The notes below the pieces were generated by a model. The model did not search any database. It was not told the DNA's origin and worked only from the letters and a program-made list of their open reading frames with translations. 32,013 bases of DNA from a virus, in the UHGV virus genome UHGV-0351843; one strand, written 5' to 3'. Below are positions 1-16,603 of this stretch, in pieces; positions within the stretch are counted from its first letter, which is position 1; each line of letters starts with the position of its first letter. Made by a program: the position numbers and the translations under genes.

Positions 1-486
1 TATCGCGTCCTCAACAATGAATTTTGTGATGCAGTGCCTGGTGCCTCCAGGTGACGTTAACCAGTTAACAATTAACGCCGGATACAGAGAATCCACCCAT
101 AACACTGTTTTTGGTTTTAACTGTTCCGCGTGCGCTTAGCCGCATTCACCGCATCACAAAATTCACTTTAAAAACGGCGGCAGAGCAGTCACGGAGTAAA
201 ACTGATACCGCCAAACGTCACCAGAAAATTGATAACAGAGGGCGTTGCAGCGGGGTTGTCACTTAAGCGTATGGTCAACCTGACAACTCGGTGTCCTCAA
301 CGGGGAAGGAATAACCCCGCCATACTTACCGCCGCGCCATTTCGCGGGTTGCCACAACCGGAAGCGCACGGTCGAATTAAATTTAACGACACCGTACAGT
401 GAGACGAACTTCGCCGTGCGCTTTCGTGTTGTGTGCCTGCTTTTAACCACGTCAGGCGAGGTGGTATCCTTAAAATCACCACAGTT

Positions 487-1300: not shown

Positions 1301-1516
1301 GTTCTTACGCCTCGGGCTGGCTACTTAACCCCTGACCACTGCCTGGTAACTCGAAGTATTGCCCTGCATTCTGTGGGGCGGGGTGGGTGGCAGGCATATA
1401 ATGTACTTTTCGTTCATTGTTGTAAAGTACTTTTAGTACATTTTGTGTGTAAAAAAATGAGATGGGATAAAGTGAAGCACAAACCCGGAGGAAGGCGCTA
1501 CCGGATTTATGCTGGT
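1301..1516 (-). promoter_or_regulatory. putative leftward early promoter/operator region (pL-like) with repeated GTAC-containing motifs
   Basis: Intergenic region between the repressor 3' end and the leftward genes. It contains repeated GTACTTTT / AGTAC motifs (about 1403-1445) and, on the minus strand, a TTTACA followed about 17-18 nt later by an AT-rich -10-like hexamer. Confidence 0.3.
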
Positions 1517-1936
1517 TTAAGAGGCTTTTTGTTTTTTCTTTCGTGCTAACTCTTCGTAAATTGCATTGTACTTCTGTTTTTTCTCTTCAAGAGTTTTTAA
1601 AAGTTCATCTGTCTCACTGTCAGGGAGCTCGTCCAGAAGGTCAATGATGATTTTTTGTCTTGGATTTAACTCCTGATAGAAACGTACCTGTCCACTTTCT
1701 TCTGTATCCTCTCCCAAAAGATAGGTTGGTGTTGTTCCTATTAGTGTTGCTAATTCCCTTAATTTCTCCCGGCGAGGAATTGTTTCGCCATTAAACCATT
1801 TGCTAACCGCTTTTGGTGTTAATTTCATTCGACGGGCAATTTCTGCCTGCCTTCCATGTTGTTCATAACCAGCGTTTTCACAGGCTAGCGCAAGCCTACT
1901 GGCGAACTCTTTACGCGCTTTATCTTCATGAACCAT
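1517..1936 (-). CDS. phage repressor, HTH XRE family (CI/DicA/RacR-like)
   Basis: 139-aa ORF with an N-terminal HTH-like segment (QAEIARRMKLTPKAVSKWFNGETIP) and a charged C-terminal tail. It is divergently arranged with a Cro-like gene across an ~80-bp intergenic region, the classic immunity-region layout. Confidence 0.8.
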   Translation of the reverse strand: MVHEDKARKEFASRLALACENAGYEQHGRQAEIARRMKLTPKAVSKWFNGETIPRREKLRELATLIGTTPTYLLGEDTEESGQVRFYQELNPRQKIIIDLLDELPDSETDELLKTLEEKKQKYNAIYEELARKKKQKAS

Positions 1937-2015
1937 AAGTTCAATGATATTCGCTCTTGAATGTACTGTCAGTTCTGTTATAGCATGTACTCAAAGTTCA
2001 CATTGTGAGGGTGAT
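1937..2015. promoter_or_regulatory. divergent promoter/operator region between repressor and cro-like gene
   Basis: An 80-bp AT-rich spacer between divergent starts, with repeated TGTACT motifs (about 1962 and 1989) that may be operator half-sites. Confidence 0.4.
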
Positions 2016-2270
2016 ATGAACCAGAAAACACTTGAAGATGTAATCAAAACTGTTCGCGTTGCTGTTGTGGCCGACGTTTGTGGTGTCAGCCAAAGAGCAA
2101 TCTATAAATGGATGGATAACGGAAAATTGCCTCGCACAGAATATACCGGCGAAACAAATTACGCTGAAAAAATCGCTCTTGCATCAAACGGATTATTTTC
2201 TGCCGATGCAATTTTAACTATTGGCAGGAATAAAACTACTACGAAAAAGCTGATGGGAGTTGATTCATGA
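2016..2270 (+). CDS. Cro/YdaS-like small HTH regulator
   Basis: ATG at 2016 preceded by GAGGG. The 84-aa product carries an HTH-like segment (VADVCGVSQRAIYKWMDNGKLP). It is the first gene of the rightward operon opposite the repressor. Confidence 0.65.
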   Translation: MNQKTLEDVIKTVRVAVVADVCGVSQRAIYKWMDNGKLPRTEYTGETNYAEKIALASNGLFSADAILTIGRNKTTTKKLMGVDS

Positions 2271-2692
2271 AAATCAAGCATGAACACATCCGCATGGCGA
2301 TGAATGCCTGGGCGCATCCGGACGGCGAAAAAGTACCGGCTGCGAAAATTACCAAAGCGTATTTCGAGCTGGGAATGACGTTCCCGGAACTGTATGACGA
2401 CAGCCATCCGGAAGCCCTGGCTCGCAATACTCAGAAAATTTTCCGCTGGGTGGAGAAAGACACCCCTGATGCGGTTAAAAAAATTCAGGCGTTGTTACCA
2501 GCTATCGAAAAAGCAATGCCACCTCTGCTGGTGGCCCGAATGCGCAGTCATAGCTCAGCCTATTTTCGGGAACTAGTGGAGACGCGGGAACGACTGGTGA
2601 GAGACGCTGATGATTTTGTCGCAGTGGCGATCGCTGGTTTCAACCAGATGAATCGTGGTGGCCCTGCAGGAAATATTGTGGCTGTGCATTGA
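2267..2692 (+). CDS. YdaT-like (CII-like) regulatory protein
   Basis: 141 aa, start overlapping the upstream stop (ATGA). The N-terminus MKIKHEHI and the overall size match my recollection of the Rac prophage YdaT family. Confidence 0.6.
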   Translation: MKIKHEHIRMAMNAWAHPDGEKVPAAKITKAYFELGMTFPELYDDSHPEALARNTQKIFRWVEKDTPDAVKKIQALLPAIEKAMPPLLVARMRSHSSAYFRELVETRERLVRDADDFVAVAIAGFNQMNRGGPAGNIVAVH

Positions 2693-2763
2693 CTCGCAAT
2701 ATTCATACCGGATCACTTCCGGCAATTTATGAGTAAAAAGATTCGGTATCAAAAGAGGTGAGT

Positions 2764-3834
2764 ATGGCTAACGCCTGGCTCAGATTATGGCATGACATGC
2801 CAAATGACCCTAAGTGGCGAACAATTGCCAGGGTGTCAGGGCAGCCAATTGCAACAGTGATGGCAGTGTATATCCACCTCTTGGTGAGCGCGTCACGAAA
2901 TGTCACGCGAGGTCACATTGATGTCACGACAGAAGATTTGGCAAGTGCGCTCGACGTGACAGAAGAGGTAATTGATTCAATTTTGCAGACGATGCAGGGG
3001 CGGGTACTTGATGGTGATTTAATCACTGGATGGGAAAAACGCCAGGTGCTTAAAGAGGACAACGGCAATATTTCGCAAACCGCAAAATCTCCTGCAGAGC
3101 GCAAGAGGGCGCAGCGAGAGAGGGAAAGAAAGCGGGAACAAAATGGCGATTGTCACGGCGCGTCACGAAATGTCACGCACATGTCACGACGAGTCACGAC
3201 AGATAAAGATACAGATAAAGATACAGATCAAGAAGATCAAAACACTATGGTCCATGGCGTAAAAAACGCCACGAACCAGGCAGGGGATGTTCAGACCGTC
3301 AATCTTGGTCAGCCAGCAGGCACGACACCGGAAGCCGATTCAGCGTATGCGCTGAAAGCCGATTCGGGCGCTGTGCAGCAGGTGATGACCGCAAGGCCGG
3401 AGCAATCACACCAACTGCAGCAGCCCGAAGCCGATTCCGCCATTCAGCGGGAAGCCGATCGGGTAGTCCCGGAAAACACCGGGCAGTCTGTGGGACGAGT
3501 GGATTATCCGGATGTGTTCGAACAGGTCTGGCGGGAGTACCCGTTGCGTGCCGGAGCAAACCCGAAGAAATCCGCTTTCAGTGCCTGGAAGGCCAGATTA
3601 CGCGAGGGGGTGCCACCAGAGGCCATGCTGGATGGCGTGAGGCGTTACGCAAGATACTTGGCGGCTACCGGGAAAACGGGAACGGAATTTGTTCAGCGAG
3701 CGACGACGTTTTTTGGACCGGACCGGAATTTTGAGAACCCCTGGTTGCTCCCGGTAAGCGGCACGAACAACCAGCGTTGTGTGAATCATATTTCTGAACC
3801 GGATAACGAAATTCCGCCGGGCTTCAGGGGGTAA
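2764..3834 (+). CDS. replication initiator (phage replisome-organiser N-terminal domain with YdaU/DUF1376-like C-terminus)
   Basis: ORF 2758..3834 (GTG at 2758; ATG at 2764 with AAGAGGTGAG upstream). It occupies the O-gene position after the cro/cII-like genes and has an iteron array embedded in the coding sequence. The C-terminal segment resembles the YdaU family (recalled). Confidence 0.75.
   Translation: MANAWLRLWHDMPNDPKWRTIARVSGQPIATVMAVYIHLLVSASRNVTRGHIDVTTEDLASALDVTEEVIDSILQTMQGRVLDGDLITGWEKRQVLKEDNGNISQTAKSPAERKRAQRERERKREQNGDCHGASRNVTHMSRRVTTDKDTDKDTDQEDQNTMVHGVKNATNQAGDVQTVNLGQPAGTTPEADSAYALKADSGAVQQVMTARPEQSHQLQQPEADSAIQREADRVVPENTGQSVGRVDYPDVFEQVWREYPLRAGANPKKSAFSAWKARLREGVPPEAMLDGVRRYARYLAATGKTGTEFVQRATTFFGPDRNFENPWLLPVSGTNNQRCVNHISEPDNEIPPGFRG
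2889..2930. repeat. iteron cluster A (GTCACG-type repeats) inside the initiator gene
   Basis: gcgcgtcacgaaatgtcacgc followed by ggtcaca and tgtcacg; about four GTCAC(G/A) copies at roughly 10-bp spacing. Confidence 0.6.
3151..3240. repeat. iteron cluster B plus AT-rich tandem repeat; candidate origin of replication
   Basis: Five GTCACG copies at about 10-bp spacing (near 3152, 3162, 3172, 3183, 3193), including a perfect 21-bp direct repeat of cluster A (gcgcgtcacgaaatgtcacgc). They are followed immediately by the AT-rich tandem agataaagatacagataaagatacagatcaagaagatcaa. Confidence 0.6.
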
Positions 3835-3874
3835 GTGTTAATTTCTGGTCATGAGGTAATTTTCAGGAGGGCTT

Positions 3875-4297
3875 GTGGCAAAAGTTTTTACACAAGAAGA
3901 GCGGGAAAAAATTAAAGGGCAGGTTGTTGAACTCGTACGCCAGAGTGGGCGCGAGACGTTAAGACAACTGGAAACTAAAACTGGGGCAACAAAATATCTG
4001 ATGAACGTTCTGGCCAGAGAGCTGGTTGCCAGTGGCGATGTATACAACTCTGGTTACGGGTTATTCCCGTCTGAACAGGCGCGTAAGGACTGGCAAAATG
4101 CCCGTAAAAAGCTCTCAAGGGCAAAGCTGAAGAAACCATCTGCGGTTGATCCGGACCTTATCTGGTCATTACCTGATGGAGAAATACGTCGTTACGACAG
4201 GCGTCATAATATGATTTGTACTGAGTGTCGTAAAAGCGAAGTTATGCAGCGCATATTGTCGTTTTATCAGGGGGATGTTCGGTATTTATTGAAGTGA
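3875..4297 (+). CDS. hypothetical protein (GTG start) in the position of the second replication gene
   Basis: 140-aa ORF with AGGAGG 5 nt upstream of GTG. No recognisable DnaC/P/DnaB signature was seen by eye. Confidence 0.5.
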   Translation: MAKVFTQEEREKIKGQVVELVRQSGRETLRQLETKTGATKYLMNVLARELVASGDVYNSGYGLFPSEQARKDWQNARKKLSRAKLKKPSAVDPDLIWSLPDGEIRRYDRRHNMICTECRKSEVMQRILSFYQGDVRYLLK

Positions 4298-4559
4298 CGA
4301 GATTAAAGTGCATTAGTTCAGATGCAAATTGACATTTTGTGGCACAGGGTAGAGCTAGCGTGGTTGTCCGCTTTGTGCCAACAGCGGACATTATGGAAGG
4401 TCAGAGTTAAAGATTAAAATGGGATGCTGTGTGTTTTCTCCAGGTTTTGCTCTATACCTTTCGGGATACTCCACCGACAGAATACGAAAATCAACATTAT
4501 CAACGGCTCGAAGTGTCTAGATTATCCATGGCAATTCATGGGAAATCCCATCCAACGGC

Positions 4560-5951
4560 TTATGCTTCATGTTGCTTTTTGAGATCGCTTCTAGCATAGC
4601 TCCACTCAATAATGTTGTCGGGTCGTTGCTGATCGAAAAGGATACGGGATTCAATACCATTACCTAAAAAGCTGGTATTCCCATCTACGTAAGAAGCTAT
4701 CCCTTGTGAACCAACACGAAGAATATTTTCTAATGGCTGCTTTGTTCTTGCTGCATCGCTAAGGAGATATAAACCCGGGTACGTTTTGTTAGCACGGTGA
4801 AAAAAAAGTTCATTGTCAAAACACATGACGATGATTATTTGTCCCGACATGAGATCGGAGAGCATTTCAGTTGGCAGATGCAAACTCATAAATGGTCGAG
4901 ACAAAGGGTCAAAGAATGAATCATTTATATTCACAACAGGGCTTTTTATACCGAGACTATCCATCCATCCATTGAAGGCAACAAAGCCCATTTCAGAATC
5001 ACGGTACATACCTAAGAACAAACATTCATCAATAGTATCAATTGCCCAATTTTTTCCTCCGCGAATAATCTCCCACATTTTAACTAAGCGGTGGGTATAA
5101 AATTCAGACGGATGATCTATCTCATTGATTTTAACTTTAGACTGATGAAAGTTGTCAAAGCCCTCGCCAGTATTAATCGCCTCCAGAACATTCATGCCAC
5201 GAATGATTTGCCTTTTTATGCGATTAAATTGCTTAACATCATTATCAGGCATATTGTTAATGAAGTTTTCTTCAAAGTGCGGACATTCTGAGATAACAGA
5301 AAATTCAGCAGCTTCATAAAGCTCATTATTCTTTTCACCTGTTTTAACTTCCACGAGCTGGAAGCCATCCAGTAGATTAAAGGTGACTAAATCTCCCACA
5401 TGAACAAATGTGCTCATGTCAGAGACAATCGCTACGGAGTGTTTGTCCTGGTTGATAAGATCGGCTGCGACCATAGAATCAATTATGTTATCTTCTGATA
5501 GATTGTCATTGCTTGCATTAATAGGTAAACGCCGCAAACTAGAGTGTTCTTCATCAAGAATGCTCCAAATTATTGAGTCAATACAACGGCGAAGAATAAG
5601 AATTTCAAATTTTTTTAAACTTATTTCATCAATACACTTTTCTTTATTTTCTTTATCCTTGTTTCGATGGTGCTCTTTTTTTTCAGTTTCCAATCTTTTT
5701 ATATCTCTCAGCCGAATAATAATCTCAAAAGATATGATTTTTTGTGAGTCTTTCCAATTTTTGAGACAGGTTTCATACTCTGCAAGAAAATCCTCATCAT
5801 TGGAAGGTAGTTCTTGAATTGGATTCCCTCCCCTTATCATTTTGGCAAGTGCATGCATTAAAGATACATAATGAGGTGATAAAATTGTCCAAAACTTCCT
5901 AAACGGTTTGTACTTTTCAAGAAAAGTTGACTCATCAGTATAATTCATCAT
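4560..5951 (-). CDS. hypothetical protein, candidate defence effector with a possible PD-(D/E)xK-like motif
   Basis: 463-aa minus-strand ORF (track 4560..5957 begins at TTG; ATG at 5949-5951 with GAGG upstream) in an AT-rich island. The central segment HVGDLVTFNLLDGFQLVEVKTGEK fits a D...(E)xK nuclease-type motif. It lies directly downstream of the AbiH-like gene on the same strand. Confidence 0.7.
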   Translation of the reverse strand: MMNYTDESTFLEKYKPFRKFWTILSPHYVSLMHALAKMIRGGNPIQELPSNDEDFLAEYETCLKNWKDSQKIISFEIIIRLRDIKRLETEKKEHHRNKDKENKEKCIDEISLKKFEILILRRCIDSIIWSILDEEHSSLRRLPINASNDNLSEDNIIDSMVAADLINQDKHSVAIVSDMSTFVHVGDLVTFNLLDGFQLVEVKTGEKNNELYEAAEFSVISECPHFEENFINNMPDNDVKQFNRIKRQIIRGMNVLEAINTGEGFDNFHQSKVKINEIDHPSEFYTHRLVKMWEIIRGGKNWAIDTIDECLFLGMYRDSEMGFVAFNGWMDSLGIKSPVVNINDSFFDPLSRPFMSLHLPTEMLSDLMSGQIIIVMCFDNELFFHRANKTYPGLYLLSDAARTKQPLENILRVGSQGIASYVDGNTSFLGNGIESRILFDQQRPDNIIEWSYARSDLKKQHEA

Positions 5952-6040
5952 AACCAAACCTCATTCCTCTTATCTATTTTCCTCAAGGTATAAAATACCA
6001 GCCTTTTTTACATAATTATAGTTATAATATGAAGTCTCAT

Positions 6041-6910
6041 TCAGATATCTTCATACTGTACGTAAGAAATATTTGAGCCTCTGATACCATAATCTTCTAA
6101 ACTGCCTGATTTTTTCTCACCTCTATATAAAGCAACTATCCATCGAGCATTTTCTTGGATGCTTTTATTTATTTCAGTAAAGTATTCACCGTCAACTTCG
6201 GCGAGCGAGTGGCCTAAAACGATGACCTCGTCCACATTTTTAAGCGATGAGAAAAAAACGTTTTCTTCTTTAATTATGTCTTCGCTGGGCTTGAATGTAT
6301 TACCGAAGTATTCGTTTATTCTGTCGTATGCCTCTGCTATTCTTGTATCTTGATCCGGTCCTATATATGGATTTAGTGACTTTTCCACCCTAAAACTATG
6401 ACCAAGTATGAGATCGTCATCGTAACTACAATTGCCGTGAATATGTATGATTTGCTCGTCTGGAACGGCATAGATCTGCTGCAAGGTATTTGTATAATTA
6501 AATGAAAAATAGATGCTTTCTCTTGGTATGGGCGGGATGTATTGCTTAGGATTGTAAGCATCGGCTATGTTAATCCCTTTAACCCAATCAGCGAATTGCT
6601 CCTTCAAACGAGCTGACAGCATTTGTGTGATTTTATTTACTTCATATTGGTAATCGTGATGATAAGCATCGCTCCAATCATCGGTATTGTATGAAGCCAA
6701 AAATATCTCACTGTTTTGAAGGATAAGCTCATAATCAATTTCACCTAAAGCATTTTCTAACTCATTCCACTCGTCCCCAGCAGGAATGTATTCTTCTATC
6801 GCGTCATATAGATCTTGGTCATTTTTTTCTACATACGACTTAAAGTGCTTGTATCCTGTTGGTAAGCCATGACGCATGTCAAATCCATTTCCTATTATGT
6901 AAAGCCTCAT
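6041..6910 (-). CDS. AbiH-like abortive-infection family protein
   Basis: ORF 6041..6961; the likely start is Met18 at 6908-6910 with AAGGGA upstream. The N-terminus MRLYIIGNGFDMRHGLPTGYKHF matches my recollection of the conserved N-terminal motif of the AbiH family; this needs HMM confirmation. AT-rich codon usage unlike the flanking phage genes. Confidence 0.65.
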   Translation of the reverse strand: MRLYIIGNGFDMRHGLPTGYKHFKSYVEKNDQDLYDAIEEYIPAGDEWNELENALGEIDYELILQNSEIFLASYNTDDWSDAYHHDYQYEVNKITQMLSARLKEQFADWVKGINIADAYNPKQYIPPIPRESIYFSFNYTNTLQQIYAVPDEQIIHIHGNCSYDDDLILGHSFRVEKSLNPYIGPDQDTRIAEAYDRINEYFGNTFKPSEDIIKEENVFFSSLKNVDEVIVLGHSLAEVDGEYFTEINKSIQENARWIVALYRGEKKSGSLEDYGIRGSNISYVQYEDI

Positions 6911-7224
6911 TGTTTTTCCCTTAGTCGAATTGTATAAAAATACTAACATGGCCTGCTCCACGTTGACTACTATCCCCTCCTTTGAGTAATGCCTTCATCA
7001 GATGTAACAACATTTGCGAGCTTCCACAGTTCGCTCAAAGCGGACTAGAAGGTTAGCTTGCGTCGGACTTGGCGTATTTAAAGAAGTGCTGGTGGAGACT
7101 GGTTGTTGTGTTCCATTTCTACAGAACAAAATCACAGAAACTATACCCAATAGTTATATTGAATCAATGATGAGACAGCCTCATATTTATCAGGACTGGT
7201 GTACGTCCAATACAGGAGGTTGTC

Positions 7225-7314: not shown

Positions 7315-7525
7315 TTTTATATTGGCGAGGTGACGTGAGTTAAGTAGAATTGCTGCGGGTGCTTGAGGCTATCTGCCTCAGGCATGAACACCAAAGGCAG
7401 ATAGAGAAAAGCCCCAGTTAACATTACGCGTCCTGCAAGACGCTTAACATTAATCTGAGGCCAATTTCATGCTAGACACATGTAGGTTAGCCTCTTACGT
7501 GCCGAAAGGCAAGGAGAAGCAGGCT

Positions 7526-7681
7526 ATGAAGCAGCAAAAGGCGATGTTAATCGCCCTGATCGTCATCTGTTTAACCGTCATAGTGACGGCACTGGTAACG
7601 AGGAAAGACCTCTGCGAGGTACGAATCCGAACCGGCCAGACGGAGGTCGCTGTCTTCACAGCTTACGAACCTGAGGAGTAA
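7526..7681 (+). CDS. hok: Hok/Gef-family type I toxin
   Basis: 51-aa product MKQQKAMLIALIVICLTVIVTALVTRKDLCEVRIRTGQTEVAVFTAYEPEE with AAGGAG upstream. It has the Hok family signature (N-terminal TM helix plus the CEVR motif) and matches my recollection of HokD/RelF-type chromosomal Hok proteins. An in-frame upstream ATG at 7469 could give a Mok-like extension. Confidence 0.85.
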   Translation: MKQQKAMLIALIVICLTVIVTALVTRKDLCEVRIRTGQTEVAVFTAYEPEE

Positions 7682-15823: not shown

Positions 15824-16186
15824 ATTAATATTAAATCGGATTATTTTTAGCGCTGAATGTGAAATTTAAATAAAAAGGACTCTTCCATGAGTCAAAATCC
15901 TTGAAATCTTAAGGGTAAGATAAAAGGTCATTAGACAGAATGACACGTTTTATTAATAAATAAAGCTATTGTTTCATTCGTGTGTTTTTCTTTACAAAAG
16001 TAATCCTTGCTATGGTTGGTTAATCATGCGTTAATGGTGTTCTGGTTTGTTACAAAATTATCTGAAGCAGTCATTGTTATAATTTTATTATTTGTACCTC
16101 TTGAGATTTCCTTGTTGGTTTTTCTCTCTGATATTTTTTTTCGGACCATTCTGCCCAAGGGCTAACTTCTTCAAAAGGTAATAATG

Positions 16187-16399
16187 ATGTCTAACAAAAT
16201 GACTGGTTTAGTGAAATGGTTTAACCCTGAAAAAGGTTTTGGTTTCATCACGCCGAAAGATGGTAGCAAAGATGTGTTTGTGCATTTCTCAGCTATTCAG
16301 AGCAACGATTTCAAAACGTTAACTGAGAATCAGGAAGTCGAATTTGGTATTGAGAACGGACCTAAAGGCCCTGCAGCTGTTCATGTAGTGGCACTTTGA
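16187..16399 (+). CDS. cspI: cold-shock protein, CspA family
   Basis: The 70-aa product [70 protein letters not shown] has RNP1/RNP2-like motifs (KGFGFI, VFVHF). It is preceded by a long AT-rich leader. Confidence 0.9.
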
Positions 16400-16603
16400 G
16401 GTAGAAAATATTACAAACCATATTCACTTTAGATGCCCGTGTTGCCATGGTTCTCAGTATAGAACATCATCTTTTGATGTTTCTGACAGAAATCCTTTCG
16501 GGGCAAAATGTATCTTTTGTAAATCAATGATGATTACATTTGATAATATTTCACAATACTTAAATGTTAGCCATCTGTCGTTAGATTTAAGAAAGTGAAA
16601 ATG

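Follow-up and report, generated by a model that had tools for sequence, protein, structure and literature searches.

An iteron-type replication origin predicted within the initiator gene of a Qin/Tritos-like lambdoid prophage

The early region of virus genome UHGV-0351843 raises the question of why a protein-coding gene should carry two clusters of the same short DNA repeat. The stretch analysed, 32,013 nucleotides (nt) on one strand and hereafter called the window, contains a gene for a putative replication initiator of 356 amino acids (aa) in which GTCACG-type repeats are followed by an AT-rich tandem repeat. An earlier note had read this arrangement as a probable origin of replication of the lambda type, embedded in the initiator gene. 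The present analysis supports that proposal: positions 2888-3280 very probably form an iteron-type theta (vegetative) origin of a Qin/Tritos-like lambdoid prophage, located inside the gene of its own initiator. Support is drawn from the recurrence of the layout at the same offsets in homologous genes, from the co-variation of the repeat core with the protein clade, and from the frozen synonymous sites within the cores. From these we infer origin activity, that is, iteron binding by the N-terminal domain, melting of the AT-rich tract, a start of replication at this site and the route of helicase recruitment outlined below.

Repeat arrays, AT-rich tract and selection on the DNA

The motif GTCACG occurs 23 times in the whole window, and nine of these exact matches fall within the 307 bp from 2892 to 3198, where about 0.12 would be expected (Poisson P ~1e-14). 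They belong to two clusters about 260 bp apart (Table 1), namely array A with copies spaced by 10, 10 and 11 bp and array B with spacings of 10, 10, 11 and 10 bp. Each array thus holds the three or more direct repeats with helical phasing that are expected of an iteron origin. The exact motif positions bear out the two clusters described in the earlier note, one of four copies and one of five at roughly 10 bp; for the second, Tandem Repeats Finder recovered a 10-bp period with 5.0 copies at 3151-3201. The perfect 21-bp direct repeat that had been claimed (GCGCGTCACGAAATGTCACGC) was found at 2888-2908 and 3158-3178, 270 bp apart. Three features were absent from the earlier description: an inverted copy located 64 bp past the first array-A copy, an imperfect palindrome beyond the AT-rich tract, and the translation of the motif in all three reading frames. 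At the protein level, array A codes for aa 43-56, comprising the end of helix 1 and the loop preceding the helix-turn-helix (HTH), and the inverted copy codes for D64-V65-T66, where the predicted recognition helix begins. The amino acids encoded by array B (130-145) belong to a linker predicted as disordered (predicted local distance difference test score, pLDDT, <30).

Table 1 Features of the proposed origin and of the initiator gene in the window
Feature	Position	Strand	Remarks
Iteron array A	2890..2931	+	4 direct copies of (T/C/G)GTCAC(G/A): GTCACG at 2892, 2902 and 2923, variant GTCACA at 2912
Inverted iteron copy	2954..2961	-	Minus-strand GTCACG at 2955-2960
Iteron array B	3150..3200	+	5 direct copies of GTCACG, starts 3152, 3162, 3172, 3183 and 3193
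A/T- and purine-rich tract, candidate DNA unwinding element	3199..3245		Abuts array B
Imperfect palindrome	3248..3278		TGGTCCATGGCGT AAAAA ACGCCACGAACCA; directly past the AT-rich tract
Replication initiator/replisome-organizer gene	2764..3834	+	356 aa; ATG at 2764, in-frame GTG at 2758
Predicted N-terminal winged-helix domain	2764..3033	+	aa 1-90; AlphaFold2, pLDDT ~85
Predicted four-helix C-terminal domain	3499..3723	+	aa 246-320; AlphaFold2, pLDDT ~80
DnaT-like C-terminal tail	3760..3831	+	aa 333-356, ending in VNHISEPDNEIPPGFRG; PDB sequence search and NCBIfam

The AT-rich tandem reported directly after the second cluster was confirmed as a 12-bp unit, ACAGATAAAGAT, present in 2.9 copies at 3199-3233 (Tandem Repeats Finder). 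The tract as a whole is 71% AT with 74% purine on the top strand, its GC content falls to 0.30 at 3200-3239, it contains two GATC sites (3226 and 3235), and it also codes for the acidic DKDTDKDTDQEDQ linker. The prediction of DNA unwinding that had been suggested as a check identified 3202-3242 as the 30-40-bp duplex of lowest stability, both in the gene and across the immunity-replication region (positions 1500-4500; top 0.03-0.1%), and by predicted duplex stability the adjacent, easily melted region required of a DNA unwinding element (DUE) is therefore present at 3199-3245.

The palindrome past the tract folds as DNA with -8.7 kcal/mol (z -2.3; 5 of 200 shuffles were equally good), its outer stem is retained in a relative from Escherichia coli O157 (locus L165), and it may represent a third origin element. 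It was the sole item of interest in a promoter and terminator scan, the counts of which were at chance level. In many homologues a short GC-rich hairpin stands straight past the purine tract, for example TACCCCCCTGAGGGGGTA and CCACCTGACGGTGG (loci L002 at about 2955-2985, L102, L120, L135, L144 and L157), and recalls the palindrome beside ori-lambda; compared with control windows, however, the folding energy of this hairpin showed no significant difference across the family (median percentile 0.40). No Rfam RNA family overlapped the origin region.

Homologues were collected by tblastn of the N-domain against phage genomes and by a scan of one genome per bacterial species. They share 37-99% identity and derive from phages of Aeromonas, Pseudomonas, Ralstonia and cyanobacteria as well as from about 80 species of Proteobacteria. 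The layout statistics cover 79 homologous loci, of which 69 carry an array of at least three copies at the array-B offset and 55 at the array-A offset, the latter being unchanged relative to the ATG (nt 129-165). Copies are spaced by 10 or 11 bp in more than 90% of cases, with a mean of 10.1-10.25 bp. In the 40 nt past array B the mean AT content is 66%, compared with 43% in the whole gene, and 67 of 69 loci show this excess; purines make up 75% of the coding strand there. The first base of the last core precedes the beginning of the purine tract by 5-8 nt in 48 of 65 loci. Phages of Aeromonas and Pseudomonas (74% identity) have GTCAC copies at exactly the offsets of the window; they also retain a tract of the GATAAAGATA type past array B and, at +64, the inverted copy. 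The inverted copy is kept at the same offset in most loci of the GTCACG class, and in the other core classes array A ends, on its 3' side, with a copy that is inverted or palindromic. Distant homologues combine the same layout with another core, such as CGAACGC in a Caudoviricetes contig and GCAACGC in Ralstonia phage Hennie; the core classes encountered were GTCACG, CGAACGC, GCAACGC, GTGACGC, GTAACGC and CTACGTAG. A conserved protein with lost DNA repeats, the pattern that the earlier note had named as decisive against its proposal, was not the case among the approximately 80 homologues, in which the repeats persist.

The two arrays of one gene have a common core. A gene's own array-B core occurred on average 3.03 times in its own A region, compared with 1.19 times (maximum 1.88) in 2000 shuffled pairings. 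Iterons and initiator accordingly co-evolve, with clade-specific cores common to both arrays and iterons that move together with the N-domain. This behaviour bears on whether the repeats are bound by some other protein, be it a host factor or the phage's own YdaT/CII-like or DUF977 protein. The neighbouring genes do code for DNA-binding proteins, and the initiator is a putative iteron binder; however, in hosts that range from Enterobacteria to Burkholderia and Sphingomonads the core changes together with the N-domain encoded by the same gene, whereas the neighbours differ among homologues (DnaC-like, primase-helicase, DnaB, P-like or none), and mosaic genes of E. coli move the iterons with the N-domain and not with the downstream module. 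DnaA boxes with up to one mismatch were not found near the arrays, a result that speaks against such a host binder and is neutral for an origin at this site. Recognition by another protein is hence very unlikely.

Selection on the DNA was addressed with a synonymous-site test on 19 homologues of the GTCACG class from different genera (median identity 73% at the amino-acid and 70% at the nucleotide level). The third codon base is invariant inside the array-A cores (0.00 bits, eight codons with a conserved amino acid) and varies outside them (mean of 1.41 bits over 32 comparable codons; P = 7e-6), and the arginine codon between two array-A cores varies freely. Owing to the period of 10-11 nt, successive copies are translated in different frames, as C-H, S-R and V-T, and the peptides encoded by array B differ among homologues while the DNA cores stay. 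A repeat that is read in three frames, has frozen synonymous sites and outlasts its array-B peptides is a DNA signal, and the peptides ASRNVT and DKDTDKDTD are by-products. The opposite relation, in which the DNA repeats would follow from a peptide repeat or low-complexity linker selected in the protein, or from a recent chance duplication, could appeal to the two occurrences of ASRNVT and to the repetitive DKDTDKDTD. Both peptides are encoded as the earlier note had stated (ASRNVT at aa 43 and 133, DKDTDKDTD at aa 147), with the qualification that the duplication of the former is a consequence of the DNA repeat. As array B additionally lies in a disordered and poorly conserved linker, the explanation by a peptide repeat is effectively refuted by the reading frames and the synonymous sites and retains hardly any probability. 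The iteron number varies by steps of 21 bp, equal to two iterons or seven amino acids (e.g. 'TCHGVSL'), and the reading frame is thereby kept.

The initiator protein and the exchange of its modules

The initiator matches PHROG 3729 ('replication initiation protein') from end to end, residues 1-356 aligning with profile positions 1-356 (E 5.4e-258); the functional label of this PHROG is an annotation and not an experimental result. The NCBI name is 'phage replisome organizer'. The earlier designation as an O/YdaU-like gene was not borne out, and both memberships were rejected: the lambda O family (Phage_rep_O, PF04492) was not listed in Pfam scans even at E values up to 10, and DUF1376, the YdaU family, was likewise unlisted. 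Some phage records carry the name 'DNA replication protein O', which the depositors assigned. Over the full length of its profile, Phage_rep_org_N (PF09681) aligned with aa 1-129 at 16.6 bits (E 0.008), below the cut-off of 23.3, and TIGR01714 reached 15.4 bits against a cut-off of 49.8. From these alignments a distant relationship of the N-domain to Phage_rep_org_N is plausible, not established.

An AlphaFold2 model built on 25 sequences predicted an N-terminal winged-helix domain with helix 29-45, loop 46-55, helix 56-63, recognition helix 67-77 and wing 78-86, followed by a basic helix (aa 110-126), a disordered region (aa 128-245) and the four-helix C-terminal domain. The part from aa 122 to 356 is matched by PHROG 1701 ('DnaD-like helicase loader') and other replication PHROGs, and the C-terminal domain presumably recruits a helicase or helicase loader. 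The tail resembles DnaT in a PDB sequence search (6aep, E 0.0028; also 2ru8 and 9zbt) and aligns with positions 156-179 of the 179 positions of NCBIfam NF002770 (19.2 bits, cut-off 201). Membership in the DnaT family was rejected, as PF17948 gave no match and only the last 24 residues are DnaT-like. No gene for a helicase loader follows the initiator gene in the window or in the viable phage Tritos. Within the disordered spacer a 36-nt direct repeat is located at 3328-3363 and 3424-3459, 96 bp apart (PEADSAYALKAD and PEADSAIQREAD); in 324-aa alleles from E. coli exactly 32 aa are missing from this part, which identifies the repeat region as a polymorphic tandem duplication.

Relatives in E. 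coli match the window gene over its first 464 nt, or else downstream of a junction, starting at nt 482 or nt 599. In strain NCTC86 (L166), the N-domain of the window, 6+5 GTCAC iterons and the AT tract are followed by a different C-domain (PF17948, DnaT DNA-binding domain), and a lambda-P-like gene stands directly after the initiator gene. The reciprocal case is a prophage of E. coli O157:H7 (L165, 981-1500), in which an unrelated N-domain (MRDYAKVSPRFWL...) without a Pfam match comes with two arrays of a different iteron, AAGGGGCTT, phased at 10 bp, and with a CAGGAACAGGA tract; after the tract come the C-module of the window and then a gene for a DnaC/IstB-like ATPase. These mosaics identify the N-domain with its iterons as one unit and the C-domain with its downstream partner as another, joined at the AT-rich tract. 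Since the unrelated N-domain of L165 has the same two-array layout, the bipartite in-gene origin design extends beyond the PHROG 3729 family. The same module logic is that of lambda O and P.

The position of the junctions could also be taken to mean that the repeats are homology patches for swapping the N- and C-modules of initiators and have no role in replication, and the slippage-like steps of 21 bp in copy number agree with this. An origin, however, separates two functional modules, so junctions are expected there anyway; the origin in lambda O likewise lies between two functional modules. Homology patches leave unexplained the helical phasing, the clade-specific cores common to both arrays and the frozen synonymous sites among species with no common module, and we consider a mere recombination role most improbable.

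A further possibility concerns the coding content of array A. This array and the inverted copy might encode the very parts of the protein that read the iterons, the loop after R49-G50 and the start of the recognition helix. Residue 51 (window 2914-2916), which follows the invariant R49-G50, tracks the iteron class across L085-L164, being H or Y with GTCACG, mostly R with CGAACGC, N with GCAACGC and D with GTGACGC. Locus L121, devoid of array A, still has H51 and GTCAC iterons in array B, whereas L135 and L137, 77-78% identical to L121 and with an almost identical HTH, have R51 and CGAACGC iterons. Self-encoding is countered by members of the CGAACGC class without array A, which carry T, S, V or E at position 51, and by L096 and L097, which retain GTCACG iterons without the D-V-T residues; from the alignment alone, specificity determinants are not separable from phylogeny. 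We therefore regard self-encoding as unlikely, although not negligibly so. If true, binding site and reader would be one piece of DNA in which a single mutation could alter both, and this would explain how new origin specificities arise in step.

Comparison with known origins and proposed mechanism

In ori-lambda, direct repeats, an AT-rich tract and a palindrome follow one another between the parts of gene O for the N-terminal DNA-binding and the C-terminal recruiting portions of the protein. In lambda O, the N-part together with the iterons is one specificity module, the C-part is a second one, and hybrids arise at the origin. The location of ori-lambda in gene O is documented in PMC6022878. 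The window resembles lambda in having the proposed origin inside the initiator gene of the rightward early operon, with repeats, AT-rich tract and palindrome in this order. In contrast to lambda, the window protein has no sequence relationship to Phage_rep_O, its cores measure 6-7 bp at 10-bp phasing instead of iterons of about 19 bp, and the repeats are split into two arrays about 260 bp from each other, array A lying within the coding sequence of the DNA-binding domain. The window phage also has neither a P gene nor any other loader gene, and its initiator ends in the DnaT-like tail.

Bacillus phage SPP1 offers an experimentally proven parallel in position. Its oriL, which has been reconstituted in vitro, lies within gene 38 and consists of boxes bound by G38P and an adjacent AT-rich DUE (PMC5737612). 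In gene 38 the repeats and the AT-rich stretch span roughly nt 360-450 and immediately precede the part for the C-terminal Phg_2220_C domain; array B and its tract occupy the same inter-domain position. G38P is a replisome organizer, and 'phage replisome organizer' is the NCBI name of the window protein. Homology of the N-domains of G38P and the window initiator was undetectable (hhalign probability 0.2), and a profile alignment of the C-domains gave E 0.3, which is suggestive only. Unlike the window phage, SPP1 encodes its own loader G39P and helicase G40P, infects a Gram-positive host and uses another type of repeat.

In iteron plasmids (P1 with RepA and incC/incA, F with RepE, pPS10 with RepA), a winged-helix Rep protein binds phased direct repeats beside an AT-rich region, a second iteron cluster and inverted copies are found near or in the rep gene, and iterons co-evolve with Rep. 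The window has in common with them the phased repeats beside an AT-rich region, the second cluster, the inverted copy and an initiator with a predicted winged helix. The likeness is one of layout, and homology was not found: plasmid iterons measure 17-22 bp and lie outside the rep coding sequence, and the element in the window is a proposed lytic phage origin, unlike the copy-controlled origins of plasmids.

The plasmid parallel can equally be turned into an argument for regulation. Direct repeats in iteron plasmids serve initiation and control, and inverted repeats serve as operators. The two separated arrays with an inverted copy at the end of array A could accordingly be initiator sites for autorepression, a roadblock or handcuffing like that of P1 incA, with the true origin elsewhere, and array A is indeed dispensable in 24 of the 79 homologues. 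Array B, however, always adjoins an AT- and purine-rich, easily melted tract for which a purely regulatory site would have no need, no other candidate combining iterons and an AT-rich stretch was seen in the replication module, and the proven oriL of SPP1 has the same location within its gene. A solely regulatory function of the repeats is thus improbable, whereas a regulatory role for array A alone is plausible.

Several observations weigh against an origin at 2888-3280. The instability of the tract ranks only in the top 1.5% window-wide, where other stretches are equally unstable, and its 71% AT extends over just about 45 bp. The winged-helix fold of the N-domain is predicted only, and a Foldseek search of the model against the PDB returned weak winged-helix matches (MarR, MepR and GabR, E ~1) that cannot assign a family. 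The 24 homologues without a clear array A imply that this array is not essential for origin function in general. The co-variation of the core across clades is partly confounded by shared ancestry. Finally, the searchable literature held no reports of binding, footprinting, origin mapping or plasmid replication for the PHROG 3729 family. A paper on these iterons was not found either, although most subscription journals were outside the search and a prior description is possible; the article on the 'Eru' replication modules of Stx phages (PMC8044961) contains no origin or iteron analysis. The design is classical, and the initiator family and its repeat sequence appear to be undescribed.

For the origin proposed here, which would work in the manner of ori-lambda with O and of SPP1 oriL with G38P, the following sequence of events is conceivable. 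Upon derepression, the rightward early operon would express the initiator, the predicted winged-helix domain of which would bind the short GTCACG iterons. Because the iterons are one helical turn apart, the bound proteins would line up along the same side of the helix. The nucleoprotein assembly at array B, which may be bridged to array A some 260 bp upstream, would then destabilise the adjoining tract at 3199-3245. Array A may act as an auxiliary site, as a looping partner or in copy control or autoregulation. The C-terminal domain and the DnaT-like tail would finally bring in the host helicase DnaB, probably via host DnaC or the primosome. Given that no phage loader gene is present and that the tail is DnaT-like, such a host-dependent route is a reasonable inference. 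The likeness to E. coli DnaT (primosomal protein I) concerns the last 24 residues of the initiator, and sister variants carry the full PF17948; in contrast to DnaT, the window initiator has no PF17948 match and nothing similar to the DnaT N-domain. Tail mimicry of DnaT suggests that the host primosome or DnaC is hijacked; the function of the DnaT C-terminal tail is not resolved in the preprimosome study PMC13377028.

Occurrence, genomic setting and significance

Among 5426 complete E. coli genomes, 1647 contain at least 80% of the initiator gene. The isolated phages Tritos, Evi and vB_EcoS-689R5 carry the gene at 98-99.5% identity, and in Tritos the region 2882-3425 is identical and the gene order is the same. 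The E. coli allele P0019 (302 aa) is devoid of most of array B and of the whole AT-rich tract (window ~3165-3330) and may be an origin-deleted, replication-dead prophage copy. Two intact open reading frames (ORFs) for initiator homologues are unannotated in their records, one in Pseudomonas phage phi1 (KT887557; L002, 2468/2501-3400) and one in CP137943 (L171, 4001-4890); both encode about 300 aa and have 4+4 GTCAC iterons. CP137943 is a circular Pseudomonas 'plasmid' of 50.9 kb that looks like the genome of a D3-like phage, and its sole replication module consists of the initiator homologue and a DnaB-like helicase, an anecdotal observation as regards origin function.

In the window, the rightward early operon has the initiator gene in fourth place, preceded by genes for cro-like and YdaT/CII-like proteins; a DicA/cI-like repressor gene lies upstream on the other strand, and a DUF977/Ren-like gene lies downstream. 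A low-GC insert (0.34-0.40) on the minus strand at 4560-6961, between the replication module and hok/sok, contains an abortive-infection gene of the AbiH type (6041-6961; PF14253, E 8e-69) and an ORF of 465 aa for which neither Pfam nor PADLOC gave a match. The cargo gene at the corresponding place in phage Tritos is a different one. Rfam matches comprised the hok/sok toxin-antitoxin locus (7357-7681; Rfam sok and an ORF matching HOK_GEF), the small RNA DicF (175-226, minus strand) and a cspA-type thermoregulator in a 5' untranslated region (16029-16445), all three of which are accessories of Qin/Tritos-like prophages.

For a specialist the design will hold no surprise; it is the co-variation, the frozen sites and the prevalence of the gene that make the origin prediction solid and useful. 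The analysis provides a precise prediction of an origin of about 400 bp for an initiator family that is common in E. coli and has relatives in phages of Pseudomonas, Aeromonas, Ralstonia and many further Proteobacteria. These relatives are poorly annotated, the gene being labelled 'hypothetical' or wrongly 'protein O' and left uncalled in some Pseudomonas phage records. The apparent absence of a phage loader together with the DnaT-like tail suggests a route by which the host primosome might be hijacked. The natural series of co-varying cores constitutes a data set on the evolution of initiator-origin specificity, and the same series could be used to predict replication incompatibility or cross-activation between co-resident prophages.

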